From Chloroflexota bacterium (GTDB lineage: Bacteria; Chloroflexota; Limnocylindria; Limnocylindrales; Limnocylindraceae): a stretch of 54,304 bases of DNA. The notes below the pieces were generated by a model. The model was not told the origin of the DNA. It searched no databases and worked only from the letters and a program-made list of their open reading frames with translations. Of the stretch, positions 26,632 to 39,270 are shown piece after piece (the stretch's first letter is position 1; each line of letters starts with the position of its first letter). The position numbers were made by a program, and so were the translations under genes. The stretch is taken from the NCBI GenBank assembly GCA_038145565.1, contig JAYQPX010000004.1, positions 1 to 54,304 on the forward strand, written 5' to 3'.

Positions 26632-27816
26632 CTACTTCACGTGTGCGAGCGCGCGATCAAAATCTCGGATGATGTCGTCTGACCCCTCAATGCCCACGCT
26701 GATGCGGAAGATTCCGCCGCGCTTCGGCATTGGATAGACGAGCGTGTCGACTTCGCCAAGGCTCACCCCTACGCCGAAGAGTGCGATGTTGTCGGCAAAT
26801 GCGCGCATTGCATCGAGCGGATCGACGCCTGCGGCTGCGCGCGGCTTGAATGACAGCATGCCGCCCCACTTCCCACCAAGGATTCGATCCGCCACCGCGC
26901 GATCAGGATGTGAGGCGAGGCTCGGGTGACGCACCCACTCCACCTTCTCGTGACCCTCCAAGAAGGCGGCCAGCTTCGTTGCATTCGCTGTGGCGCGTTC
27001 GATGCGGAGTGGCAGTGTGCGCGCGCCGCGCGCAATGAGCCAGGAGTTGAACGGCGAGGGCGCGCCACCGAGAAGATCGGTTTGTCGGCGAATCGGATCA
27101 ACGAGCGCTTTCGACCCGGCGGCAACTCCGCCGAGCGCATCACCGTGTCCAGAGATCCACTTGGTGGTGGTCTGCAACACGAGGTCCGCGCCGAACTCAA
27201 GGGGGCGAATCGTGACCGAGCTCAAGAAGGTGTTGTCGATGACGAGCAGCGCGTTCGCGTTGTGTGCAATCGTTGCGAGCGCTGGGACATCGCTGATCCT
27301 CATCCACGGGTTGGAGAGCACCTCTGCGAAGATGATCTTCGTATTAGGCCGTATTGCCGCCTTTACCGCTGCAAGGTCCGTGATCACGACCGGCGTCACG
27401 TCGATGCCGCGAGACGGGAAGTCCTCGGCGAAGAGGATCTGGCTAATGATGAAGAGGTCGTCCGCAACGATCAAGTGGTCGCCGCTCTTGAGATGCGCAA
27501 GCAGACCGGCGGAGATTGCAGACATGCCTGCCGCCGACGCGATCGCGCTCTCCGAACCTTCGAGTGCGGCGAGCTTCTCCTCGAGCGCCGCCGTGGTGGG
27601 GTTGTTGGTGCGCGTGTAGAAGTATCTGTTCGGCTCCCAAGCGAGTGCGCCGTCAACCGCCGCCTCTTTCTCATCCGCCGTCTCGAATGTGAAGGTGGCT
27701 GTCTGATAGATGGGGAGGTTGTGTGCGCGAGTGGTTGGATCAGCCCCCTCGCCCGCGTGCACGGCGATCGTGTCGATCGCCGCCTTCTTGAGGTCCTGCT
27801 TCCCGTCTTTTGCCAT
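26632..27816 (-). CDS. PLP-dependent Cys/Met metabolism (trans-sulfuration family) enzyme
   Basis: PIYQTATF, YTRTNNPT, GMSAI, VIDNTF, PLP-Lys TTKWISGHGD and RISVGIE motifs. Confidence 0.9.
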   Translation of the reverse strand: MAKDGKQDLKKAAIDTIAVHAGEGADPTTRAHNLPIYQTATFTFETADEKEAAVDGALAWEPNRYFYTRTNNPTTAALEEKLAALEGSESAIASAAGMSAISAGLLAHLKSGDHLIVADDLFIISQILFAEDFPSRGIDVTPVVITDLAAVKAAIRPNTKIIFAEVLSNPWMRISDVPALATIAHNANALLVIDNTFLSSVTIRPLEFGADLVLQTTTKWISGHGDALGGVAAGSKALVDPIRRQTDLLGGAPSPFNSWLIARGARTLPLRIERATANATKLAAFLEGHEKVEWVRHPSLASHPDRAVADRILGGKWGGMLSFKPRAAAGVDPLDAMRAFADNIALFGVGVSLGEVDTLVYPMPKRGGIFRISVGIEGSDDIIRDFDRALAHVK

Positions 27817-27843
27817 GGCGGCAGTGTAGTGGGGCGTGAGGAG

Positions 27844-27919
27844 TGGAGCGGGAGACGAGGTTCGAACTCGCGACCTTCTGCTTGGGAAGCAGACGCTCTA
27901 CCAACTGAGCTACTCCCGC
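27844..27919 (-). tRNA. tRNA-Gly (anticodon CCC), CCA encoded
   Basis: Reverse complement GCGGGAGTAGCTCAGTTGGTAGAGCGTCTGCTTCCCAAGCAGAAGGTCGCGAGTTCGAACCTCGTCTCCCGCTCCA folds as a 76-nt cloverleaf with U73. -10 TATCCT upstream. Confidence 0.97.
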
Positions 27920-27969
27920 GTGGGGGGTGAGGATAGCGCATGAGGAGTGGGGGAGGCTACGCTCTGGGC

Positions 27970-28701
27970 ATGGAGAGTGGACGTCATCCGATCACGTACC
28001 GCTGGCTCGGCAGGCTCGGCTATGACCAAGCGCACGCGGAGCAGCGTCGTCTTGTTGATGAACGCGTGGGCGGGAGCGGCGTAGATACGCTCTTGGCGCT
28101 TGAGCATGAACCGGTGCTGACGTTGGGGAAGAACGCAACGCTCGCCCATCTGCATCTCCCAGAAGCTGAGTACGCGGCGCGCGGCATTGCGCTGCGGCGG
28201 GTGGAGCGTGGGGGCGAGGTGACGTATCACGGGCCCGGACACCTGGTGGCGTATCCCATTGTCAACTTGCGCGCGGCGGGAATTTCACTGCGACAACACA
28301 TCTGCGCGCTCGAGGACGCGCTGATCGCGGTCTGTGCGCACTACGGCGTGGCAGCGGAGCGGCGCAGCGGTGCGCCGGGCTGTTGGGTTGGCGAGCGCAA
28401 GATCGGCGCTGTTGGCGTGCGCGTGGAGAGCGGCGTGGCGTGGCATGGCCTGGCACTGAACGTAGGTCGCGACCTTGAGGCCTTTTCGCTGATCAATCCG
28501 TGTGGGCATGCGGGGGTGGTCTCAACCTCCATAGCGCTGGAGCGCGACTGGGCGGCGGTTGCTTCGGGCGATCGAGATGCGGTTGGATCTGCAGCACCTT
28601 CAGTCGAGGAGGTTGCCGAAGTGGCGGCACTTGCCTATGCGGCGGCGATCGGTGCGTATCTTTACGACGCTACGATGAGTGAGATGAGTGTGAGCAGATG
28701 A
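27970..28701 (+). CDS. lipB: lipoyl(octanoyl) transferase
   Basis: LEHEPVLTLG, RGGEVTYHGPG, RKIGAVG, HGLALN and INPCG motifs. Start at TACGCT-N6-ATG 27970. Confidence 0.95.
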   Translation: MESGRHPITYRWLGRLGYDQAHAEQRRLVDERVGGSGVDTLLALEHEPVLTLGKNATLAHLHLPEAEYAARGIALRRVERGGEVTYHGPGHLVAYPIVNLRAAGISLRQHICALEDALIAVCAHYGVAAERRSGAPGCWVGERKIGAVGVRVESGVAWHGLALNVGRDLEAFSLINPCGHAGVVSTSIALERDWAAVASGDRDAVGSAAPSVEEVAEVAALAYAAAIGAYLYDATMSEMSVSR

Positions 28702-29666
28702 GTGGCGGCGGCATGTGGGAGCTGCGACGCGACGAGATCACCGGGTGGTGGTCCGCAACGGTTGTCGATCGCGAGTATCAACCGGAGCGGTTTCATGAAG
28801 AGCGCCTCTCAGGCGCACGAGACGCGACGTGCGGGAACTGCGAGAAGGGTGAAGCGAGAGGAATCTCACGCCGCATGTTGCGCCAAGGAGCGTTTCACTC
28901 GGTTGGGACCCGAACGGATGTGGCGGCGGGGGAGTCGGGATTCCTGACGCTGAGCGATGTGGATCGTGCCGGATCATGGTCAACGCTGATTGCACCGCGC
29001 GGCGAGCACGGTGAACTTGATGAGGTACCGACCCCGCTGATCGTGGACTTCCTCTCGGCAATCCGCGATCAGATTCGCGCGGGCCGAGAGCTGGGGAGCA
29101 CCGCCTACATTCAGTTCGTTCGCAATGCGGCGGCCCAGGCTGGCGCAATGACGGATCACCTCTGCTTTGAGTCGTACGACCTTCCGCAGGTGCCGCACCG
29201 GCTCGCGGAAGAGATCGGAGGTGCGGCGCGACTCTCCATTCGCGCAGGAGGGTGCGCCTTCTGTCACATGGTGCAAGACGAAGTGGCGAGCGGGCGACGC
29301 TTGATCCATCGAGATCCATACGGTGCGGTGATCGCCCCGTTCGCGAGCCGCTCTGCCTTTGAGACGTGGATCGTTCCGAACAACCACGGATCAGATTTCG
29401 GCGATGTTGACACCGCGACGCTGCGCGGCTTCGCTGAGACGTTGCAGGCGGCGGTGAAGGCGCTGCGCGCGATCGGCATGCCGCCCTACAACCTGCTCCT
29501 CCACACGGCGCCGCTCCGTGAGCGTGTGGACCTCACCTATCACTGGCACTGGGAGCTCCATCCACGCCTTCGACCGATCGGTGGGCTGGAGTTGGCCTCG
29601 GGCATCCCGGTGGTGCCGATCGCGCCCGAGGAGGCGGCGGCGGAACTGCGCCGAGCCCTCACCTAG
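28698..29666 (+). CDS. GalT-like (HIT superfamily) protein with an altered nucleophile motif
   Basis: ELRRDEITG, CAFC, PFASR, YNLLLHTAP, YHWHWELHPR and PEEAAAELR motifs. The HxHxQ motif reads HLCFE. Confidence 0.85.
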   Translation: MSGGGMWELRRDEITGWWSATVVDREYQPERFHEERLSGARDATCGNCEKGEARGISRRMLRQGAFHSVGTRTDVAAGESGFLTLSDVDRAGSWSTLIAPRGEHGELDEVPTPLIVDFLSAIRDQIRAGRELGSTAYIQFVRNAAAQAGAMTDHLCFESYDLPQVPHRLAEEIGGAARLSIRAGGCAFCHMVQDEVASGRRLIHRDPYGAVIAPFASRSAFETWIVPNNHGSDFGDVDTATLRGFAETLQAAVKALRAIGMPPYNLLLHTAPLRERVDLTYHWHWELHPRLRPIGGLELASGIPVVPIAPEEAAAELRRALT

Positions 29667-29689
29667 CCCCCTGCTAGCATTCGGCGGCA

Positions 29690-29723
29690 CCCGCGACGTG
29701 GTCGGCAGAGATCGGCAGGCGGG
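29690..29723 (+). promoter_or_regulatory. candidate PyrR-binding stem-loop in the pyrR 5' UTR
   Basis: CCCGC/GCGGG lower stem, internal loop, GTCGG/TCGGC upper stem and CAGAGA hexaloop. Lies downstream of -10 TAGCAT and abuts the RBS. Confidence 0.55.
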
Positions 29724-29738
29724 AGAGAGGAGACCCAG

Positions 29739-30311
29739 ATGGCACGCATGGTCATGAATGCGGAAGAGATCCGCCGAGCCCTTACCCGCATCTCCCACGA
29801 GATCGTTGAGAAGGAGGGGACCAAGGGGCTTGTGGTGGTCGGCATTCAGCGCCGCGGCGTTCCACTTGCGAAGGTGATCGTTGAAGCGATCAAGGAGCAT
29901 GAAGGCGTAGAAGTTGAATACGGAACGCTAGACATCAGTTTCTACCGTGATGATCTCTCCACAATCTCCGTTGCCCCCGTTCACCGAGGCACGAGCATCC
30001 CGGGCGACATCACGGACAAGACCGTGATCTTGGTCGATGACGTGCTCTATACGGGTCGCACGATTCGCGCGGGGCTTGATGCACTCATAGATTACGGACG
30101 ACCAAAGGCGATCCGCCTAGTCGCACTGATTGACCGCGGACATCGAGAGCTTCCGATCCGTGCAGATCATGTGGGGAAGAACATTCCCACCACGAGTGAC
30201 GAAGTGGTCCGCGTATGCGTGAAGGAGTTTGACGGCGACGATCTCGTGAAGGTGGAGTTGCTCGCGGAGCATCTTGCCGCGAACGAGGCGGCCGCGAAGG
30301 CGAAGGGCTGA
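29739..30311 (+). CDS. pyrR: pyrimidine regulator / UPRTase PyrR
   Basis: RALTRISHEI, LDISFYRDD, LVDDVLYTGRTIRAGLD and GHRELPIRADHVGKN motifs. Confidence 0.96.
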   Translation: MARMVMNAEEIRRALTRISHEIVEKEGTKGLVVVGIQRRGVPLAKVIVEAIKEHEGVEVEYGTLDISFYRDDLSTISVAPVHRGTSIPGDITDKTVILVDDVLYTGRTIRAGLDALIDYGRPKAIRLVALIDRGHRELPIRADHVGKNIPTTSDEVVRVCVKEFDGDDLVKVELLAEHLAANEAAAKAKG

Positions 30312-30334
30312 GCACGGAGAGGCGGGAGACGCCA

Positions 30335-31330
30335 ATGCCACCCTCGGCCGCTCCCCATCGCCACCTGCTTGATGTTGCGGGCCTCTCGTGGAGTGATCTG
30401 AAGCTGCTGCTCGGCACCACCGAGGCGGCACGTCGCATTTTGGGCTCGCCGACCGGTCGCGTGGATGCACTGAAGGGTGTGAACGTCACCACGCTCTTCT
30501 ATGAGGCCTCTACCCGAACGCGCATCTCCTTTGAGAACGCTGCGAAGGCACTCGGCGCGAATGTCAACAGTGTGGCCGTTGCCAACTCATCGGTAGGGAA
30601 GGGTGAGTCGCTTGTTGACACGGTGAAGACGCTCCGCGCGCTGGGGAGCAACGTGATCGTGTTGCGCCACGAGCGCGCGGGTGCGCCGTGGCTTGCTGCG
30701 CGCGTCTTTGACGGGTCCGTACTCAACGCTGGTGACGGCTGGCATGCGCATCCAACGCAGGCACTCCTCGATCTCTCTGTGCTTCTCCGCAACATTGGTG
30801 GAAAGGACGGCACGCTGAAGGGGCGCCGTGTGGCGATCATCGGGGATCTTCTCCACAGCCGTGTGGTGCGCTCGAATCTCCACACGCTGCGCGCTGCGGG
30901 CGCGGAGGTTCGACTTGCCGGTCCAGCCGCGCTCACTCGTGGATTCGCCGAGGCTGCGGCGAGAGGTGGCGGCGTGACGCTCTGTGCGTCACTTGCAGAG
31001 GCGCTGGAAGGTGCGGACGCAGTCATGGCGCTGCGCATTCAGCGCGAGCGACTCGATGGCGGCGAGGTGAGCTCGTTCGAGGCGTATCGCGAAGCATGGG
31101 GGCTGACGGAAGAGCGCATCGCCGCATACTCAGCGCGAGCGTGCGTGGTCCTGCATCCGGGCCCAATGAACGAAGGAGTGGAGGTCGACCCAGACGTTGC
31201 CGACGGTCCGCGAAGTCTCATCTTGGAACAGGTCGCCGAAGGGATCCCTGTGCGGATGGCGGCGCTCTGGCGCACTCTTCGCGGCGATGCACCGTTGCCT
31301 GCGCTTTCACCATCGAAGGCGAACTCGTGA
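30335..31330 (+). CDS. pyrB: aspartate carbamoyltransferase catalytic subunit
   Basis: STRT, HPTQALLD, GDLLHSRV, LRIQRER and HPGPMN motifs. Confidence 0.96.
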   Translation: MPPSAAPHRHLLDVAGLSWSDLKLLLGTTEAARRILGSPTGRVDALKGVNVTTLFYEASTRTRISFENAAKALGANVNSVAVANSSVGKGESLVDTVKTLRALGSNVIVLRHERAGAPWLAARVFDGSVLNAGDGWHAHPTQALLDLSVLLRNIGGKDGTLKGRRVAIIGDLLHSRVVRSNLHTLRAAGAEVRLAGPAALTRGFAEAAARGGGVTLCASLAEALEGADAVMALRIQRERLDGGEVSSFEAYREAWGLTEERIAAYSARACVVLHPGPMNEGVEVDPDVADGPRSLILEQVAEGIPVRMAALWRTLRGDAPLPALSPSKANS

Positions 31331-32730
31331 GTCGACCGCGCGCGGAACGGACGCTGCTGAAGGAGCACTGGATTGTTGACCCCGTGAGTCGACGCGCAGG
31401 CGTTGCCACGATCGAAGTGCATAGCGGGAAGGTGGCGCGAATTGAGTGGCGCGATGGAGTGGCTGAGGCGCGCCGCGCATTCATTGAGGGGGCTGAACCA
31501 GGGCCGAAGGATCCCAAGAGACTTGTCCTTCCTGCACTCATCGACCTCCATGCGCACTTCCGTCAGCCCGGGGCGGGCGCGTCTGAAGATGTTGCGAGCG
31601 GTGAGGCGGCCGCCGCCCATGGCGGATACGGTGCGGTTGCGCTGATGCCCAACAGTGAGCCAGCTGCCGATCACCCTGCACTTCTTCGGGAGCTGACACG
31701 CACCACTGCGCCGCGTGGTGTGACCCTCATGCCGATTGCCGCCGCAACCCTCGGTCGTGCTGGTCGCACGCTCGCGCCGATGGCGGAGCTCGCCGCCGCA
31801 GGCGCCGTTGCCTTCAGTGATGACGGCAACCCGATCGCCGACCCTGCGCTCTTTCGAAATGCGCTGATAACTGCGGGCGCGCTTGATCTGCCGCTCATCG
31901 AACACTGCGAAGATCCTGCACTCACTCTGGGTGGAGAGGCGGCGGATGGCGTGGTTGCTACCGCACTCGGTCTCCGGCCGTGGCCCGCCGCCGGTGAGAT
32001 CAGCGCGGTGGTCCGCAACATCGCGCTGTTGCGCGACGCGATTCGTGACGAGCCGCGCGCGCGACTTCACCTCACGCATCTTTCAACCCGGGCAGCGCTC
32101 GATGCCGTTCGCGCAGCACGTGCAGAGGGGCTCCCAATCACGTGCGACATCACGCCGCATCATCTTGCGCTCACCGATGCCTGGATTGCGGGAGATCAGC
32201 GGTGGGCGTGGGAGTACAACGATCAATTTCAAGCGAGCCTTACACCGGCCGCTGACGCGTACGACACGAACCTGCGCGTCTGTCCGCCGCTGCGTGACGC
32301 GAGTGATGCGGCTGCGTGCAGAGCTGCGCTCCGTGACGGTACCGCGTCCGCAATCGCAACCGATCACGCGCCGCACTCGCGCGAGAAGAAAGAGGTGGAG
32401 TTCGGCCTCGCCGCGAATGGGATTGCGGGGATCGAGACGGCGCTCAGCACACTCCTTGCGGCACGCGCCGCTGGCGAGTTCCCGCTCTCGCTCGTTGTGG
32501 CGCTGCTCACAACGGGCCCTGCGGCGGTGTTGAATTCACCAGCGCTTGCACGTGGGCTCGTCGTTGGTGAGCCCGCGAACCTGGTCGTGGTGGACCTGAG
32601 TGCTACCTGGGTGCCGAGCCGAAAGACGCTGATCGGACGAAGCATCAACACGCCGCTCCTCGGCAAGCCCCTCCCTGGGGCGGTGCTCCTTACGCTGCTC
32701 AACGGTGAAGTCGCGTGGAAGGCAGAATGA
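31327..32730 (+). CDS. pyrC: dihydroorotase
   Basis: DLHAHFRQPG, AFSDDG, HCED, PHHL and TDHAPH motifs. GTG start at 31327 overlaps the pyrB stop. Confidence 0.93.
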   Translation: MSRPRAERTLLKEHWIVDPVSRRAGVATIEVHSGKVARIEWRDGVAEARRAFIEGAEPGPKDPKRLVLPALIDLHAHFRQPGAGASEDVASGEAAAAHGGYGAVALMPNSEPAADHPALLRELTRTTAPRGVTLMPIAAATLGRAGRTLAPMAELAAAGAVAFSDDGNPIADPALFRNALITAGALDLPLIEHCEDPALTLGGEAADGVVATALGLRPWPAAGEISAVVRNIALLRDAIRDEPRARLHLTHLSTRAALDAVRAARAEGLPITCDITPHHLALTDAWIAGDQRWAWEYNDQFQASLTPAADAYDTNLRVCPPLRDASDAAACRAALRDGTASAIATDHAPHSREKKEVEFGLAANGIAGIETALSTLLAARAAGEFPLSLVVALLTTGPAAVLNSPALARGLVVGEPANLVVVDLSATWVPSRKTLIGRSINTPLLGKPLPGAVLLTLLNGEVAWKAE

Positions 32731-32734
32731 GGAG

Positions 32735-33100
32735 ATGAGCAACCTACCCGCACCTGAGATGCCCGAGTACAAGGGGGCACCGCTGAGCCCAGATCGCGGC
32801 CCTGGCCTCGGCTGCTTCTGGATTCAAGTGGTGGCGCTCGTCGTCTTTGTCATCCTGGCGCCCCTCTCCGCGGTGTTGAACTGGGGACCTACGATCGCCA
32901 CGCTGCTCTTGATTGGCGTGGTGATCTTGCTGCTCCTTGTAGGTCAGACCTCCATCTTCCTTCTGCGACTTGTGGCGGCTGACCGTCGCGGTCGGCGTGC
33001 GCCGCTCGCGAGTAAGAGCAAGACGGTGGGGGAGCTTGAGGACGAGGCGCAGCGAGCAGCTCGCGACAACGAGGACGCCGGCATGGGAGAATCGCGCTGA
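32735..33100 (+). CDS. hypothetical 2-TM membrane protein
   Basis: GGAG RBS before ATG 32735; two hydrophobic helices; coupled to the next ORF. Confidence 0.75.
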   Translation: MSNLPAPEMPEYKGAPLSPDRGPGLGCFWIQVVALVVFVILAPLSAVLNWGPTIATLLLIGVVILLLLVGQTSIFLLRLVAADRRGRRAPLASKSKTVGELEDEAQRAARDNEDAGMGESR

Positions 33101-33426
33101 TGCCAGTGCTTGCTACGTACTTTTCGATTCGACGGGGGCGTGACCCGTTCTTCAAGTTTTTCATGCGCACGCTCTTTCCAAAGACCGTGAAGTCTTATGA
33201 AGAGAAGTTCGGCATCAAGTTTCTTGGGTGGTACAACGTTGCGCACGGCTGGGACTTTGACAACGTGATTCTCTTCGACCTGCCGGACTACGGCACGCTT
33301 GACCTTCTTGAGCGCGACGAATCTTCACGGGCACTCGGGCACCGCGCCGGCGAGTGGATGTTCGAGCGGCACCACTCCATGTTCCTGCGTGAGCGACTCT
33401 CGCGCGACCTTGAGTACCGCGGCTGA
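33100..33426 (+). CDS. hypothetical soluble protein (possible dimeric alpha/beta barrel, NIPSNAP/GYD-like)
   Basis: TGATG coupling at both ends. The pattern GIKFLGWY...DNVILFDLPD suggests a ferredoxin-like fold (inference). Confidence 0.7.
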   Translation: MPVLATYFSIRRGRDPFFKFFMRTLFPKTVKSYEEKFGIKFLGWYNVAHGWDFDNVILFDLPDYGTLDLLERDESSRALGHRAGEWMFERHHSMFLRERLSRDLEYRG

Positions 33427-33917
33427 TGCCTTCCAAGCGCCCCGCCAAGCCGCTCAAGAAGAAGATCACCCTGACCCGGGCGACACGCGCACGTGCCTTG
33501 CAGACGCGCAGCGCCCTCGCACCAGAACTTACGCGGAAGCTTGCGCACGCCGCGGAGGCGGCAGGCTCCGAGCGACTCACGGCGGTTGAGCACGCTGCGG
33601 ATCGCCTCGGGAGCTATCTTCGCGAACATCGCAACACGCTCAAGGTTGTTGCTCCGCTGCTTCTGGCGGGGAGTGCAAAGGCGCCGCAGTTGATCTTGGA
33701 GAGCGACCTCTCGTTCCGCGTACGCTCAATTGACGCGCGCAAGCGCAGCAGCCTCGATCGCGCATCCACCGCGGAGGTGGTGGAGCTCTGGGCGCCTGCA
33801 GATCTCTATGACCGAATCGAGGCTGCGTTGCGCACCAAGGCGGGCCTTGCGGTGCGTCCTACGGGGGCGATCGTTGCCGGACTCGGCGCCGCCGGTGATC
33901 ACGGCGCAAAGGTCTGA
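33426..33917 (+). CDS. hypothetical protein with a basic N-terminus
   Basis: Coupled ORF filling the operon gap; MPSKRPAKPLKKKITLTRATRAR. Confidence 0.7.
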   Translation: MPSKRPAKPLKKKITLTRATRARALQTRSALAPELTRKLAHAAEAAGSERLTAVEHAADRLGSYLREHRNTLKVVAPLLLAGSAKAPQLILESDLSFRVRSIDARKRSSLDRASTAEVVELWAPADLYDRIEAALRTKAGLAVRPTGAIVAGLGAAGDHGAKV

Positions 33918-33923
33918 CGCGCG

Positions 33924-34766
33924 ATGGGCGCTGCGCCCGTACGCGCCCAACTGCTCGCCGTTGGTGAGCTTGCGCCAGGACGCAGTGCAATCCTCCTTCG
34001 ACTCCCTCAGCTGATCGCGTCACTCCGCGCGGGGCACGCACTCCACCTCCTCCACGCCGAAGCGGGCGGATACCGTCTTCGCCGCGTTGCACCAGTGACG
34101 CAGATCGACCTCATCGCTGGGAGTGTCCAGGTTGCGCTGCAACCGCGCGCCGATGGGGGTCGCGACTCACTCGCGGAGCTCTTGCCTGGTGCGCAGCTCT
34201 CCGTCGTCGGACCGATCGGACAGCCCATTGAGATAGATCCGGACGCGCTTCAGATCTTGATCGTCACTGACGTTGAGGGTTTCCCATGGGTTCGACTCCT
34301 CGCCACCTCACTCGCCGCTGCAGGGCGATCCGTGACGATGCTGTTCGAAGCGAACACCGCCGCTGAGATCCCTCCCGCCTCGCTGCTCCCTGAATCGGTT
34401 GAGATCCACGTTGCGACAGAGGACGGAAGCCTTGGCCACCACGGGAGTGCTGCAGATCTCGTTGCAACGTATACAGCATGGGCGGACCAGGTCGTTGCTG
34501 CAGGATCCAACGAGGTGCTTCGTGCAACCACAACGGTGCTGCGCACAGCGGGAGTCAGTGATCGCACGAGCGCGCGCGTCTCTCGTCCACGTGGCGAGGC
34601 AGGCGCGAAGCAGTTGCAGTTGATCGTGGCGCACGAGATCGGTTGCGGGAGCGGAGTCTGCGGCGGGTGTACGTACCAGAGCGCTGCAGGGAGCGTGCGC
34701 CTCTGCAAAGAGGGCCCGGCGGTCACGCCGTCAGGCAGCACCGGGCGAATGCGGGGTGCGCGCTGA
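33924..34766 (+). CDS. pyrK: dihydroorotate dehydrogenase electron-transfer subunit-like protein (divergent)
   Basis: CGSGVCGGC...RLCKEGP [2Fe-2S] motif and position before pyrD. The Gly-rich NAD motif is absent. Confidence 0.75.
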   Translation: MGAAPVRAQLLAVGELAPGRSAILLRLPQLIASLRAGHALHLLHAEAGGYRLRRVAPVTQIDLIAGSVQVALQPRADGGRDSLAELLPGAQLSVVGPIGQPIEIDPDALQILIVTDVEGFPWVRLLATSLAAAGRSVTMLFEANTAAEIPPASLLPESVEIHVATEDGSLGHHGSAADLVATYTAWADQVVAAGSNEVLRATTTVLRTAGVSDRTSARVSRPRGEAGAKQLQLIVAHEIGCGSGVCGGCTYQSAAGSVRLCKEGPAVTPSGSTGRMRGAR

Positions 34767-35731
34767 TGGAGGCGCGAGTCGGCGCGGTGAGCGTTCGGAC
34801 GGATCTTGTACTCGGTAGCACTCACCCGTTGCGACTTGAACGGCCGATTGTGATCGCGAGTGGACCACTCGGATTTGGCGCAGAGGCGAGCGAACTGCTT
34901 GACCTGCGAGATGTGGGTCTCTTTGTCACGCGCGGCGTCTCGCTCGCCCCGCGGAGCGGTCCAAGCCTCCCACGAGTGGTGGAGGTTCCTGGTGGATTGC
35001 TTCACGCTATCGGGCGAGAGAATCCTGGAGTTGACGAGGTGATCGATCGACACGCCCCCGCGTGGCGTGCCGCTCCTTGCGCTGTGGCTGTTTCGCTCGT
35101 TGCGACGGATCAGAAGTCCCTAGCGCCGCTAATTGCACGGTTTGAGTCACGCGCTGATCAGACCCGTATTGACGCATACGAGATCGATCTGACGTCGCCG
35201 AGCGATGCACTGAAGGGAGTACGATGGGAGAGCGCGTTTGATGAATCCGTCCAACTTGTTGAGGCTGCAAGAGAGAGCACAGAGCTCCCGATCATCGTGA
35301 AGGTCTCACCCGATGCAGCGTCGTTGCGCGCGCTCGCTGAGGCGGCGGCAGATGCGGGCGTTACGGCACTTTCGGTCAGCGGATCGCCGATCGGATATCT
35401 ACCGAATCGGGGTCGCACGCGAGGGGCGCTCGCTGAAGGTGTGGGTGAGCTCTCTGGTCCACTCATTCGACCACGTGCGCTCGCTACGGTCGCTGCTGTC
35501 CATGGAGTTCTTCCAATCATTGGCGGTGGCGGCATCGGCTCTCCCGCTGACGCGCTCGACGCGTTCGCCGCAGGGGCGGCGGCAGTCAGCCTCGGGAGTG
35601 CGCTTTGGGCTGATCCTGGTTTGCCGCGCGCGGTACTCGAGTCGGCACGTCGTGCCTCCGCTGCACGCGGGTTTGCGAGCATCTCGGATCTCGCCGGACT
35701 CGCACTCAGCGGCGCGAGCGAGCGTGGCTGA
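34766..35731 (+). CDS. pyrD: dihydroorotate dehydrogenase family 1B-like flavoprotein (divergent active site)
   Basis: PRVVEVPGGLLHAIG.ENPG, VKVSP, GELSGPLIRP and IIGGGGI motifs. ATG 34766 is coupled to pyrK. Confidence 0.8.
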   Translation: MEARVGAVSVRTDLVLGSTHPLRLERPIVIASGPLGFGAEASELLDLRDVGLFVTRGVSLAPRSGPSLPRVVEVPGGLLHAIGRENPGVDEVIDRHAPAWRAAPCAVAVSLVATDQKSLAPLIARFESRADQTRIDAYEIDLTSPSDALKGVRWESAFDESVQLVEAARESTELPIIVKVSPDAASLRALAEAAADAGVTALSVSGSPIGYLPNRGRTRGALAEGVGELSGPLIRPRALATVAAVHGVLPIIGGGGIGSPADALDAFAAGAAAVSLGSALWADPGLPRAVLESARRASAARGFASISDLAGLALSGASERG

Positions 35732-35747
35732 GAGTAGGCTGCGAACC

Positions 35748-36458
35748 ATGGGCGAGCCACTCCTCCCACTTCGCGAGCCGTTGAGGCCGCCCGCCGAGTA
35801 TCCGCAGTCGCGCGTTGCCTCGCATGATGAGGCGCTGAGCGCCCGACGTGTTGAAGGACTCTTTCTTGCGACAGGTGCACTGCAGCGTGGGCACTTCCTC
35901 CTCAAGAGCGGCCGCCATGGAGATCGTTACCTTGAGAAGTGGGCGCTCCTGCAGCATCCCGATGCCGCTGCGGAAGTGTGCGCGCTACTCGCCGAGCGAG
36001 CGCTCGTCGTGGCGCAGGCTGCCGCCGTTGAAATTGATCTGGTGGCTGGACCAACCACGGGCGGCGTCCTGCTTGCGTATGAGATCGGTCGACTCCTTGG
36101 CGTGCGCGGCATCTTTGCCGAAGAGGTGGCAGGTGACGCAGGCGCAGTGCGGAGAGAGTTCCGTCGCGGATTTCAGATCCCACCGCGTGCGCGAGTCCTG
36201 ATGGTGGATGACATCTTGACCACTGGCGGATCGCTCCAGGCGCTCCTGCCGCCACTCCTCGCCGCTGGCGCACATCCGATCGCCGCGGCGGTGGTGGCAA
36301 GCCGTTCACCAGATCTGCGAAGGATTGAGATCCCTGGTCGCGAGAGCATCCCTCTGATCACAGCGCTCACCCTTGACCTCCCAACGTATGAGGCGAGCGA
36401 GTGCCCACTCTGTGCGGCTGGCGAGCCGATCGGTGCGCCGGGGAGTAGCGGCCGCTAG
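35748..36458 (+). CDS. pyrE: orotate phosphoribosyltransferase
   Basis: GHFLLKSGRH, GPTTGGV, FRRGF and VDDILTTGGS motifs. Own TAGGCT-N7-ATG start. Confidence 0.94.
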   Translation: MGEPLLPLREPLRPPAEYPQSRVASHDEALSARRVEGLFLATGALQRGHFLLKSGRHGDRYLEKWALLQHPDAAAEVCALLAERALVVAQAAAVEIDLVAGPTTGGVLLAYEIGRLLGVRGIFAEEVAGDAGAVRREFRRGFQIPPRARVLMVDDILTTGGSLQALLPPLLAAGAHPIAAAVVASRSPDLRRIEIPGRESIPLITALTLDLPTYEASECPLCAAGEPIGAPGSSGR

Positions 36459-37411
36459 TCGGCGTCAATCTCCAGAATCGCGGCGTCAAGCTCCGCATCA
36501 CCAATCACCCCTTCGAATGAGTGGATGATCACACCGTTCGTATCCACGGTGTAGATCCACGGCTCCACGGGGAGTCGCCATGCCGTCGCAACGTCGTTCG
36601 GCTGCAGTCGTCCGCTTGCGTCCAGGGTGGGGATGACGCGGGTTCCGTTCCATTCCATCAGATATGGCTCGACGTGAAGGATCAGCGCACCTGGGTGCCG
36701 CGCCGCGGCCTTCTTCACCACGGAGATCGTTGGCCCACACGCCTGCGAGACACAGAAGGCGGGTGAGGCGAAGACGATGACAAACGGTGTTCCCGCAGCG
36801 ATCAGATCCGCTGCTGAGTACTTGTAGAGTCGCGGGAGCGGATCAGGATCGGTGCTGATCCCTGCAAGGCCGTGTTCACTTGTCTTCTGGGTTGGCGTTG
36901 CGATCCCCGGCGCGGATGCGCCTGGGCGAAGGGCAGTTCCAACGCTAGCGATCCGCGTCGTGAATCGGATGGAGAGGGGAGTGCCGTCTGCATCTGCGCC
37001 AACGATTGAGAGCCCAATCTCCTGCGCGCCCGAAGGAAAATCTGCAGTGCCAATGAAGAAGCCGCGTACCTCGTTGATTGACCATACGAATGGGAGTTCA
37101 GCGGCGGGTGCGAGCGGCACGCAGCCGTCTCTGGTGATGTCAAATGCCTGCACCTTGATTGACCACGCGGGTCCGCCGAGCGGGAAGCCTTCCGCATCTA
37201 CGAGCCCGAGAAGGAGTCGATTCTCTCCCACGGCGAGGTCGCTGTTTGCAAGAAGCGGGATCGGCCCAGAGCTCACCGTTTTTCCTGCGAGTGGCCACTC
37301 GCCAACGCAACCGCGGCGCGTCAGTTCAGACGCGGAAGGTGACGGAGTGCTGGGCGCTCCCGCACATCCGGAGAGGAGCGCGATGAAGAGGAGTGCGTGG
37401 AGAGATCTCAC
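36455..37411 (-). CDS. lipoprotein with a C-terminal thioredoxin-like CxxxxC domain
   Basis: Lipobox LSG-C, FASPAFCVSQACGP and EPW cis-Pro-like motif. TAGAGT-N6-GTG start. Confidence 0.75.
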   Translation of the reverse strand: MRSLHALLFIALLSGCAGAPSTPSPSASELTRRGCVGEWPLAGKTVSSGPIPLLANSDLAVGENRLLLGLVDAEGFPLGGPAWSIKVQAFDITRDGCVPLAPAAELPFVWSINEVRGFFIGTADFPSGAQEIGLSIVGADADGTPLSIRFTTRIASVGTALRPGASAPGIATPTQKTSEHGLAGISTDPDPLPRLYKYSAADLIAAGTPFVIVFASPAFCVSQACGPTISVVKKAAARHPGALILHVEPYLMEWNGTRVIPTLDASGRLQPNDVATAWRLPVEPWIYTVDTNGVIIHSFEGVIGDAELDAAILEIDAD

Positions 37412-37458
37412 CTCGTCACTCTACCGCAGGCTTTTGAGATGCCGCGTATCATTGAGGA

Positions 37459-39270
37459 ATGCAGGGCTTCCGACGCTCGCTCGCCACGCTCCTCGGCGCA
37501 ACGATCGGACTCGTCGTGATTGGGGTGATAGTCCGCGCCACCGACTCAGGCATGGGCTGCCCAGACTGGCCCCTCTGCTACGGACAGATCATCCCCCCAC
37601 TTGATGATTACAAGGCGTGGCTGGAGTGGATCCATCGCGCCGCCGCAGCGTTCATTGGACTGATCACACTGATCGTGGTTGCGCTGGCCCTCCGCTCACT
37701 GAAGGGGAGGCGTTCGCTCCAAGGTGCCTCGCTAGCGCTGCTGGCGCTCGTCGTCTTCCAAGCGTGGCTCGGTCGGCAGACCGTCCTTGAGTTCAACTCA
37801 GGACAATCGGTGACGGCGCATCTTGCTACTGCGATGGCGTTTGTTGGACTGCAAGTCTGGGTCCTCGCCCGCAGTGGTTACCCCGAGCGTCTGAACGGCA
37901 TCCTGGAGGCACGGGGGGCCGTCATTGCACCGATCATCGCCGCAGGCTCCATCTATGCGCTGCTGATGTTCGGCTCGAACGTCACAGGTACGGACACTGG
38001 GCTCCTTTACCCCGACTGGCCACTGATGGGTGGGACCGTCTTCCCTCCGGTGACGGAGCTCTCCACGCCACACATCGTCCACCGCTATGCCACGGGGATC
38101 GTCGGACTGATCTTGATCTCGGCGCTCTGGATCGTACGCCGCGAGCCCGGGAGTCCACTTCAGACTGCCCGCCTCCTCACTGCAGCGATCGGACTCTTCC
38201 TCGTTCAGTGTCTGATCGGCGCGTTGCAGATCTTCACCAAACTCGCCCCATGGACACAGACGCTACACGTAGCTCTTGCCACCCTGATCTGGATCCTGGT
38301 CGTTGCTGCAGCGGCGATCGCGCTCCTCGAAGCGCGCCGTGCGAACACCGGATCTGGCGATAGTGAGCGGCAAGCCACGCGTGGCGGCAAGACGCGGAGC
38401 ACGGTGAGCGCATACATCGCGCTGACGAAGCCGCGCATCGTTGAGCTGTTGCTGATCACCACCGTCCCTGCAATGTTCCTTGCGGCGCAAGGGGTGCCTC
38501 CGCTCACTCTGATTCTCTGCACGCTGATCGGCGGAACGCTGAGTGCCGCGAGCGCCAACGTCTTCAACTGCATCGTGGATGCAGATATCGATCAGCAGAT
38601 GACTCGGACGGCGGCGCGTCCGCTCGCTACGGGTGAGATCAGCACGGGTGCCGCGTTGCGCTTTGCGTCGGTGCTCGGCGCCGCGAGCTTCCTCTTCCTC
38701 GCAGCAACGACCACGCTGATGGCGGCATTCATCTCGCTTCTGGCAATCGGGTTCTATGTGCTGATCTACACACTGATCCTCAAGCGTTCCACACCACAAA
38801 ACATTGTCATTGGCGGCGCCGCTGGTGCGCTTCCACCGGTGATCGGCTGGGCGGCGGTGACTGGTGATATTTCGCTCGCGCCTATCCTTCTCTTTGCGCT
38901 CGTCTTCTACTGGACGCCACCGCACTTCTGGGCGCTCGCGCTCCGCATCGGTCCCGACTATGCCGCTGCGGGGGTGCCGATGCTCCCCGTCACCGCAGGT
39001 CCTGTGGAGACGGCACGACAGATCTGGCTCTACACAATCTTGCTGGTTGTCATGAGCCTGATGCTCTGGCTCGTTGCGGGGATGGGTGCGGTATATCTCG
39101 CGGTAGCCGTTGCTTTTGGAGCGGTGTTCCTGCTGCGCGCCTGGTGCCTTCGAAGCGAGGTGCTCGGTGACGGCCTTCTTCGCGGTGCTACTCGCCTCTA
39201 TCGATTCTCTATCACGTATCTCACGGTGATCTTCGCAGCGATTGCGATCGACGCGATCCTGCCCCTCTAA
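37459..39270 (+). CDS. ctaB: fused heme A synthase (CtaA/COX15) and heme O synthase (CtaB/COX10)
   Basis: N-half GMGCPDWPLC, EWIHR and four His helices; C-half LTKPRIVELL, DQQMTRTAARP and WTPPHFWAL. Confidence 0.93.
   Translation: MQGFRRSLATLLGATIGLVVIGVIVRATDSGMGCPDWPLCYGQIIPPLDDYKAWLEWIHRAAAAFIGLITLIVVALALRSLKGRRSLQGASLALLALVVFQAWLGRQTVLEFNSGQSVTAHLATAMAFVGLQVWVLARSGYPERLNGILEARGAVIAPIIAAGSIYALLMFGSNVTGTDTGLLYPDWPLMGGTVFPPVTELSTPHIVHRYATGIVGLILISALWIVRREPGSPLQTARLLTAAIGLFLVQCLIGALQIFTKLAPWTQTLHVALATLIWILVVAAAAIALLEARRANTGSGDSERQATRGGKTRSTVSAYIALTKPRIVELLLITTVPAMFLAAQGVPPLTLILCTLIGGTLSAASANVFNCIVDADIDQQMTRTAARPLATGEISTGAALRFASVLGAASFLFLAATTTLMAAFISLLAIGFYVLIYTLILKRSTPQNIVIGGAAGALPPVIGWAAVTGDISLAPILLFALVFYWTPPHFWALALRIGPDYAAAGVPMLPVTAGPVETARQIWLYTILLVVMSLMLWLVAGMGAVYLAVAVAFGAVFLLRAWCLRSEVLGDGLLRGATRLYRFSITYLTVIFAAIAIDAILPL

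Follow-up and report, generated by a model that had tools for sequence, protein, structure and literature searches.

A PyrK/PyrD-like pair in the pyrimidine operon of Limnocylindrus has lost the active-site residues of class 1B dihydroorotate dehydrogenase, is maintained under purifying selection and was probably repurposed

The window analysed here, a 54,304-nucleotide stretch of DNA on contig C4 (JAYQPX010000004.1), comes from a 1.24-Mb metagenome-assembled genome (MAG; 73 contigs, 89.7% complete, 62% GC) of Candidatus Limnocylindrus, a genus of freshwater Chloroflexota with streamlined genomes of 1.0–1.4 Mb. It carries a pyrimidine (pyr) operon containing a PyrK/PyrD-like gene pair, the subject of this work, which resembles class 1B dihydroorotate dehydrogenase (DHOD) but lacks its catalytic base. 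On the plus strand, which holds every gene of this series, the order is lipB, GalT-like, pyrR, pyrB, pyrC, unkA, unkB, unkC, pyrK-like, pyrD-like and pyrE, and the same order was found in every congener examined. As the initial annotation had stated, pyrR (29739–30311; bifunctional regulator and uracil phosphoribosyltransferase), pyrB (30335–31330; aspartate carbamoyltransferase, ATCase) and pyrC (approximately 31327–32730, the start being approximate; dihydroorotase, DHOase) are intact, and all three score above the curated NCBIfam cut-offs (NF003549, 230 against 138 bits; NF002032, 320 against 263 bits; TIGR00857, 290 against 279 bits, respectively). Downstream lie the three genes of no recognised family that had been noted earlier, unkA (32735–33100; two predicted transmembrane helices), unkB (33100–33426; 108 aa) and unkC (33426–33917; 163 aa), which are joined by 1-nt overlaps of the TGATG type. 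They are followed by pyrK-like (33924–34766) and the gene for the TIM-barrel subunit, pyrD-like (34766–35731), which likewise overlap by 1 nt. The last gene, pyrE (35748–36458), encodes a Thermus-type orotate phosphoribosyltransferase and is a whole open reading frame (ORF), in keeping with its earlier description as intact, with a score slightly under its cut-off (TIGR01367, 146.9 against 150.25 bits). A promoter of its own, also proposed for pyrE, is unsupported because the ATG at 35748 is only 16 nt past the pyrD-like stop at 35731, which leaves no room for one; a scan of positions 27800–37500 found no promoter-like site anywhere in that interval.

The absence of carAB and pyrF reported by the initial annotation holds for the locus but not for the genome, in which carA-carB was found on contig C1 (TIGR01368, 367 bits; TIGR01369, 1290 bits) and pyrF on contig C2 (TIGR02127, 201 bits). 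Matches to PF01180, the DHO_dh family, occur at exactly two loci of the host genome, the operon gene and a second paralog, here termed type B, located on contig C3 beside cdd. By gene content, the de novo pathway to uridine monophosphate (UMP) would be complete in the host genome if type B is a DHOD. The locus can therefore no longer be regarded as one coherent remodelled pyrimidine pathway, given that carAB, pyrF and the second DHO_dh paralog complete synthesis elsewhere.

PyrD-like was aligned to Lactococcus lactis DHODB (1EP1_A), whose residue numbers are used throughout, and to canonical Limnocylindria PyrD, and conservation within the genus was scored in 22 PyrD-like sequences spanning approximately 60% identity. 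The protein matches the DHO_dh family (PF01180, 124.5 bits, cut-off 27), with 5UE9 and 1EP1 as its best matches in the Protein Data Bank (PDB), and scores under the curated equivalog thresholds (NF005574, 184 against 269 bits; TIGR01037, 168 against 270 bits). Across the genus PF01180 scores are 105–125 bits, against 200–275 bits for canonical members of the class. Relative to 1EP1_A, the copy in the window shows K48R, GN to GP, N72H, L76R, ELNISCPN to EIDLTSPS, INT to SGS and GGLSGP to GELSGP. The position of the catalytic base, which is Cys135 in class 1B and Ser in classes 2 and 1S, is occupied by Ser in the window and by Val, Ala, Ser or Phe (in nine, eight, four and one sequences, respectively) across the genus. 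All four orotate-binding Asn residues are replaced (N72 by His, N132 by Asp, N137 by Ser, Cys or Ala, and the INT Asn by the Gly of SGS), as is Lys48, which contacts flavin mononucleotide (FMN) and reads Arg. Retained are the motifs for the FMN phosphate and ribityl groups, ASG, GGGG and G(S/T)A, together with Lys170. The genus alignment contains 101 invariant columns out of 326, the replacement residues R48, H72, R76, D132, T134 and SGSP among them; K170 does not vary in any of the 22 sequences either, and the old active site now bears invariant His72, Arg76, Asp132, Thr134 and SGSP with an R-W-E loop.

In PyrK-like (NF000796, 56 bits, cut-off 224), aligned to 1EP1_B and to canonical Limnocylindria PyrK, the nucleotide-binding motifs are altered throughout. 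The flavin adenine dinucleotide (FAD) motif RRP(F/Y)S reads RRVAPVT in the window and RRVAPV(T/S) across copies; G(K/R)GT, the GxxT motif for FAD, reads DGGRDS; the loop AGGxGIAP, which serves FAD and nicotinamide adenine dinucleotide (NAD), reads TDVEGFPWV, or (T/S/A/C)D(V/G)EGF(P/A)WV across copies; and ACGP reads AAGS. The four [2Fe-2S] cysteines are kept in all copies (GCGSGVCGGC...C; PF10418, 25.5 bits, cut-off 23.9). Both alignments bear out the coordinated loss of NAD- and orotate-binding residues that had been ascribed to the pair. A HMMER search of 1.84 billion representatives returned only about six 50%-identity clusters of the PyrD-like type before canonical class 1B proteins at 35–40% identity, so there is no wider characterised family to lend the pair a function. 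Searches of the accessible literature, which covered a 2026 comparative-genomic study of Limnocylindria, found no report of the Limnocylindrus variant.

Full-length ORFs of both genes were present in every genome fetched and aligned. The ratio of nonsynonymous to synonymous substitution rates (dN/dS), calculated pairwise by the Nei-Gojobori method (NG86), was 0.06–0.19 for pyrK-like and 0.02–0.12 for pyrD-like within subclades, with 0.08–0.12 for pyrB and 0.07–0.11 for pyrC. The product of pyrR is 91–99% identical across the genus, and its gene gave 0.01–0.05. For the most divergent pair (dS 1.3–1.6) the values were 0.24 for pyrK-like, 0.18 for pyrD-like, 0.23 for pyrB and 0.20 for pyrC, and canonical PyrK/PyrD of sister genera gave 0.10–0.19. 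A maximum-likelihood tree placed the PyrD-like clade inside the class 1B PyrD radiation of Limnocylindria. Internal branches of the clade are short and its stem is long, at 1.42 substitutions per site and a further 0.43 that one intermediate sequence shares; the exact sister group is uncertain owing to long-branch effects. The sequences record a burst of change followed by constraint, and the pair does not appear to be decaying. A pseudogene was rejected, as the frames are whole and dN/dS values of 0.02–0.19 give no sign of relaxed selection.

These results answer the check that the initial annotation had proposed, since purifying selection on the variant residues was found across relatives, with the replacement residues themselves invariant. 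Its alternative of decay toward pyrimidine auxotrophy is contradicted by the same dN/dS values and invariant columns. A dN/dS near 1 and unlinked unknown genes, which it had named as grounds for abandoning its proposal, were not what the comparison returned; selection is strong and linkage tight, and a lineage-specific new role for the PyrK/PyrD-like pair is therefore likely.

The second paralog presents the opposite set of residues. Type B keeps N72, N132, C135, N137, the INT Asn and K170, within the motifs LNAFG, E(F/L)N(V/A)SCHNV, AIN(T/A) and LK(L/V)SPD, and has Arg for K48 (VRT.T), His where the GN motif has Asn, and an insert of approximately 18 aa. Its dN/dS is 0.07–0.09 and its dN about one third that of PyrB. 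In a scan of 61 genomes of the class, nearly all carried canonical PyrD (200–275 bits) with PyrK in front, and degenerate operon PyrD was confined to the genus of the window and one further genus, g2. Within that scan, type B was present in all five genomes that combine a degenerate operon PyrD with the pathway, against two of about 55 with canonical PyrD. Across the phylum it was found in 11 of 301 genomes. In two genomes, G209 and G322, which belong to an unrelated family and are 93% and 91% complete, type B is the sole PF01180 match and pyrB, pyrC and pyrF are all present. From its retained residues and its distribution, type B is probably a working DHOD.

The surroundings of type B were also inspected. 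Nucleotide-metabolism neighbours recur but vary: cdd lies 3' of type B in the host genome and in G011, but not in G044, and in other Chloroflexota (L057–L059, 9103–9474) type B is followed by a 123-aa gene with a phosphoribosyltransferase domain. On contig C3 of the host genome type B lies at approximately 73140–74230 (L002, 1113–2202) and is interrupted by a gap, with a slightly differing duplicate stretch on either side, TTQPPHAHFTRKE* and TTQPREGHFTLKES; the interruption is an assembly artefact and not a pseudogene. Other eroded operon PyrD/PyrK were seen in g2 (L042 and L043) and in proteins P0251, P0259 and P0261. Some examples retain Cys, either with K48R and N72V/L or with N72H and loss of INT; another retains INS but not Cys. 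Genomes that carry type B may commonly show such repeated erosion of class 1B DHOD.

Two congeners, G056 and G061 (both 91% complete), provide a natural knockout of the pathway. Both are without carB, and a concatenated-protein search found no pyrB, pyrC, pyrF or type B in either. In both, pyrR directly abuts unkA at near-identical junctions seen on long contigs, and type B has been cut out precisely from the interval between azlC/azlD and cdd, which left F420-quinone reductase, azlC, cdd and rmuC in place. The block unkA-unkB-unkC-pyrK-like-pyrD-like-pyrE is nonetheless kept in each (G056 contig C4, L040 8060–12624; G061 contig C1, L050 7170–11431), and between the two genomes dN/dS is 0.09 for pyrK-like and 0.04 for pyrD-like, at dS of 0.85–1.09. 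The pyrE of G061 (L050 10511–11431) is an intact ORF but degenerate, scoring 69 bits against the TIGR01367 cut-off of 150; it has lost the KSG, GPTTGG and RREFRRG motifs and shows a dN of 0.25–0.27, about six times that of pyrD-like. Two independent pyrBC deletions were considered and rejected given the near-identical pyrR/unkA junctions, which point to one event or to one allele spread by recombination.

Because the pair survives in genomes that have lost the pathway, its role appears to lie outside UMP synthesis; on this pattern of gene retention it is selected for something else, and it is type B that tracks the pathway. Of the lineage-specific variant originally proposed, the part that stands is thus a likely new role for the pair, and the part that falls is the notion of a pathway variant. 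G056 and G061 are probably pyrimidine auxotrophs and, being without carB, may be arginine auxotrophs as well. Their pyrR is kept at 92–94% identity to that of the window, perhaps for its uracil phosphoribosyltransferase activity.

The explanation that best accommodates these observations, to which a probability of roughly 60% is assigned, is that the pair descends from a class 1B DHOD, no longer works as one and, displaced by type B, has been repurposed as an FMN/[2Fe-2S] protein. Under this scheme type B, as a distant DHO_dh paralog, would have taken over the oxidation of dihydroorotate. The operon pair would then have undergone a burst of change in which the catalytic base, orotate pocket, FAD site and NAD site were lost, and would afterwards have been fixed in its new state under purifying selection. 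The present product, which retains Lys170, the FMN-phosphate motifs and all four cluster cysteines, is most likely a flavin/[2Fe-2S] redox protein. It would pass electrons to a partner other than NAD+, the translationally coupled unkA, with its two transmembrane helices, and the highly conserved unkB being the candidates, and would still be transcribed from a PyrR-controlled leader. A more specific form of this proposal, in which the 1B heterotetramer, displaced by type B as a divergent single-subunit DHOD, has been remade as an FMN/[2Fe-2S] enzyme with a rebuilt pocket, no coupling to NAD(H), the lineage-restricted unkA–unkC as partners and PyrR control, and is indispensable even to pyrimidine auxotrophs, is offered tentatively and at clearly less than even odds. 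If true, a redox activity not described before would be at work in a freshwater bacterioplankton lineage that ranks among the most abundant.

Several observations weigh against repurposing of the pair and replacement by type B. The contacts to the FMN ring are changed at K48, N132 and the INT Asn, and GGLSGP has become GELSGP, so that FMN binding is not assured. Genus g2 bears a different, intermediate set of substitutions, a pattern that drift fits as well as adaptation. Type B itself scores 159 bits with NF005574, below the NCBIfam PyrD cut-off of 269, and has Arg instead of the Lys that contacts FMN N5 (K43/K48); a class 1A enzyme with the equivalent substitution, K45A, is inactive (PMC10395836). 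An intact SCPNV motif does not guarantee a DHOD, since class-1A-like proteins that carry it can be dihydrouracil oxidases (PMC10395836). The type B gene of the host is broken in the assembly by a 10-N scaffold gap, although it is intact in congeners. In G056, pyrE is near-canonical despite the lack of pyrF, unlike the copy in G061. Finally, every genome used is a MAG, and for G056 and G061 the lack of carB and pyrF rests on 91% completeness, unlike the pyrBC and type B deletions, which were seen directly on long contigs.

Loss of catalysis altogether would leave the pair as a pseudoenzyme that serves, for instance with unkB/unkC, as scaffold, regulator or plain electron-transfer module. Such a protein would need no conserved residue at the former base position, where Val, Ala, Ser and Phe all occur, and purifying selection is equally compatible with it. 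The order unkB-unkC-pyrK-pyrD-pyrE is found order-wide, also with canonical enzymes, so that an ancestral second, non-DHOD role may alone have survived. However, the pocket is lined by a new invariant polar set (H72, R76, D132, T134 and R-W-E), and the Fe-S ligands, Lys170 and the motifs for the FMN phosphate persist, which makes a working redox site likelier than a scaffold. A scaffold for ATCase or DHOase is impossible in G056 and G061, from which both enzymes are absent, and the ATCase scaffold was rejected as a candidate on that ground. A pseudoenzyme is, on balance, considered rather unlikely. An alternative dihydropyrimidine oxidation or modified-base handling, as the initial annotation had envisaged, is not indicated by any analysis performed here, and a dihydrouracil dehydrogenase role for the pair was rejected since its ring-binding Asn set is lost. 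To our knowledge, enzymes acting on dihydropyrimidines keep that same set.

It is improbable that the pair is still the DHOD of the cell by a non-canonical mechanism, for example with His72/Asp132 taking the part of the base and electrons passing to something other than NAD+, type B then serving a purpose such as dihydrouracil oxidation beside cdd. The PyrR leader does still head an operon in which the pair stands after pyrC and before pyrE, and a type 1S enzyme works with FMN and Fe-S and without NAD or fumarate, as stated in a passage of PMC5881531 citing Sorensen & Dandanell 2002; type B, in turn, is without the Lys that contacts FMN, and dihydrouracil oxidases occur among 1A-like enzymes (PMC10395836). 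Yet the four ring-binding Asn residues and the Lys of the operon protein are replaced, 18 of the 22 sequences have Val, Ala or Phe at the base position, and the pair is kept (dN/dS 0.04–0.09) in two genomes without pyrB, pyrC and pyrF, where orotate synthesis would lack both substrate and outlet. Type B was lost along with the pathway, and two unrelated genomes with pyrB, pyrC and pyrF carry no other DHO_dh homolog. Slow decay of a pair made redundant by type B, its deletion still pending, is very improbable even though protein conservation within the locus is lowest for PyrK-like and PyrD-like (56–62% identity where PyrB/PyrC show 61–68%) and assorted partial losses occur in related lineages (g2, P0251, P0259 and P0261). 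The ORFs are intact in all of the approximately 40 genomes with a match, truncated copies at contig ends being due to assembly, and the low dN/dS and invariant columns are joined by the short branches that follow the long stem. Streamlined genomes delete unneeded genes cleanly, as in the pyrBC and type B excisions, and relaxation in the same operon is visible in the fast-evolving pyrE of G061.

Among known systems, class 1B DHOD (L. lactis DHODB, 1EP1–1EP3) is the best PDB match of both PyrD-like (125 bits) and PyrK-like (32–35 bits). The pair shares with it the order of pyrK then pyrD with a 1-nt overlap in a pyr operon, the FMN-phosphate motifs of the TIM barrel, Lys170 and the C-terminal cluster motif CxxxxCxxC...C, and in the tree it falls within the Limnocylindria 1B clade. 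It differs in lacking Cys135, N72, N132, N137, the INT Asn, K48 and the PyrK FAD/NAD motifs, in that both subunits fall below the NCBIfam cut-offs, and in its retention by genomes without the pathway. The type 1S enzyme of Sulfolobus solfataricus, in the passages of PMC5881531 and PMC10395836 that deal with it, consists of PyrD and a PyrK-like Fe-S subunit, contains FMN and Fe-S and uses neither NAD+ nor fumarate. The same cofactor set is proposed for the Limnocylindrus pair, which is set beside 1S by description; 1S, however, has DHOD activity, a catalytic Ser and an orotate pocket that is intact, whereas the base position of the pair is unconserved and its pocket replaced.

Fungal dihydrouracil oxidases were mis-annotated as class 1A DHODH (PMC10395836) and set a precedent for another substrate in the DHO_dh family, which calls for caution with the pair and type B alike. 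They keep SCPNV, which the operon pair does not, and type B keeps SCHNV but follows de novo synthesis, not salvage, in its presence across genomes. A further likeness is to catalytically dead copies of metabolic enzymes that are maintained by selection. In Pseudomonas, ATCase contains the inactive dihydroorotase PyrC' as a structural subunit. The trypanosomatid 'prozymes' are likewise inactive enzyme paralogs kept for function (PMC6221367, PMC3663545). Both are partners of an active enzyme of the same pathway, whereas the Limnocylindrus pair outlasts the whole pathway and keeps redox-cofactor motifs.

Automatic annotation calls the pair 'dihydroorotate dehydrogenase' and would score Limnocylindrus as a user of class 1B. 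On the evidence presented here the working enzyme would instead be a poorly characterised paralog with Arg in place of a Lys thought to be essential, which bears on the definitions of the DHOD classes and is of consequence for metabolic reconstructions of a dominant lake bacterium. The pair would also be a clean case of an enzyme complex that has lost its reaction but not its selection, with pathway-less congeners serving as the natural knockout.

Searches with unkA, unkB, unkC and the long form of unkC gave no match in Pfam (E ≤ 10) or NCBIfam, in line with the initial description of three unknown genes. Seen only in the genus and in g2 (59% identity), unkA lies between pyrC and unkB and has a dN/dS of 0.05–0.17 within subclades and 0.30 for the most divergent pair. 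Within the locus, protein conservation is highest for the unkB product, with 100% identity where PyrB has 83% and 91% where PyrB has 66%, and a dN/dS of approximately 0–0.03; it is clearly important and contains no Cys, and its gene always precedes unkC-pyrK-pyrD. A total of 317 relatives were found; the 120 listed are at least 73% identical and lack Pfam domains, and wherever an organism is named, as it is for a few, it belongs to Limnocylindria or Chloroflexota. A Foldseek search of the PDB with its AlphaFold2 (AF2) model (pLDDT 64) returned nothing at E ≤ 0.001, the best match below significance being a NIPSNAP domain (TM-score 0.45, probability 0.28). The product of unkC corresponds to the N-terminal module of an acidic two-module protein of 300–330 aa, with 31% identity (E 1e-9) to the first half of the proteins in L055 and L054. 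The family has more than 4000 members, all 'hypothetical', and the AF2 model of the long form (pLDDT 76) gave no significant PDB fold match.

Long unkC lies directly upstream of pyrK in 12 of 12 loci of the same order (family f2) and was not seen there in loci of other orders of the class. In two large Limnocylindria contigs examined, both with canonical PyrK/PyrD, unkB, long unkC, pyrK, pyrD, pyrE and ctaAB are clustered. The linkage of the unknown genes to the pair that had been claimed earlier proved to be tight across the loci compared. Because other Limnocylindria have unkB, unkC and the GalT-like gene next to canonical PyrK/PyrD as well, none of the three is peculiar to the variant pair, and on this synteny they belong to the ancestral neighbourhood. 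Two highly conserved families without a Pfam domain or PDB fold match, unkB and unkC, thus travel with PyrK/PyrD across the order.

A hairpin on the plus strand of the pyrR leader (29690–29723), just upstream of the ribosome-binding site of pyrR, is a putative PyrR-binding site. It reads CCCGC...GCGGG, with a CAGAGA hexaloop on its inner stem, and is conserved in eight congeners, G056 and G061 included and unchanged, with one G.U to U-A exchange in L006, L007 and L041. A search of positions 27000–38000 with Rfam found no PyrR element at E ≤ 1, only a tRNA and a chance snoRNA match. The hairpin is probably bound by PyrR, and the block retained in G056 and G061, the pair included, would then still be under PyrR control.

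At the front of the locus, lipB (27940–28701) is followed by the GalT-like gene of the HIT superfamily (28698–29666), whose nearest solved structure is that of At5g18200 (1Z84, 94 bits). Its motif HLCFE aligns with HSHSQ of 1Z84, which agrees with the Cys-variant GalT described initially; the protein falls outside the GalT/ADP-glucose phosphorylase branch of HIT, both by its score under the curated GalT cut-off (NF008724, 32.6 against 448 bits) and by its lack of the HxHxQ motif with the nucleophile His. An HLCFD variant stands beside lipB in a distant Limnocylindria contig (L054) that carries canonical PyrKD, and HLCFE is therefore a stable variant of the family and not a local oddity of the operon. 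The gene is a neighbour and at most a candidate member of the module. A tRNA gene on the minus strand (27847–27919; Rfam 72.8 bits) lies directly upstream of lipB. On the other flank, pyrE is followed by a lipoprotein gene on the minus strand and then by the ctaA-ctaB fusion at 37459–39270, a fused heme A synthase and heme O synthase gene (COX15-CtaA and UbiA) with 80% identity across the genus, after which ctaG and cytochrome oxidase genes follow in relatives. The adjacency pyrK-pyrD-pyrE-ctaAB was present in every locus of the same order long enough to reach ctaAB.

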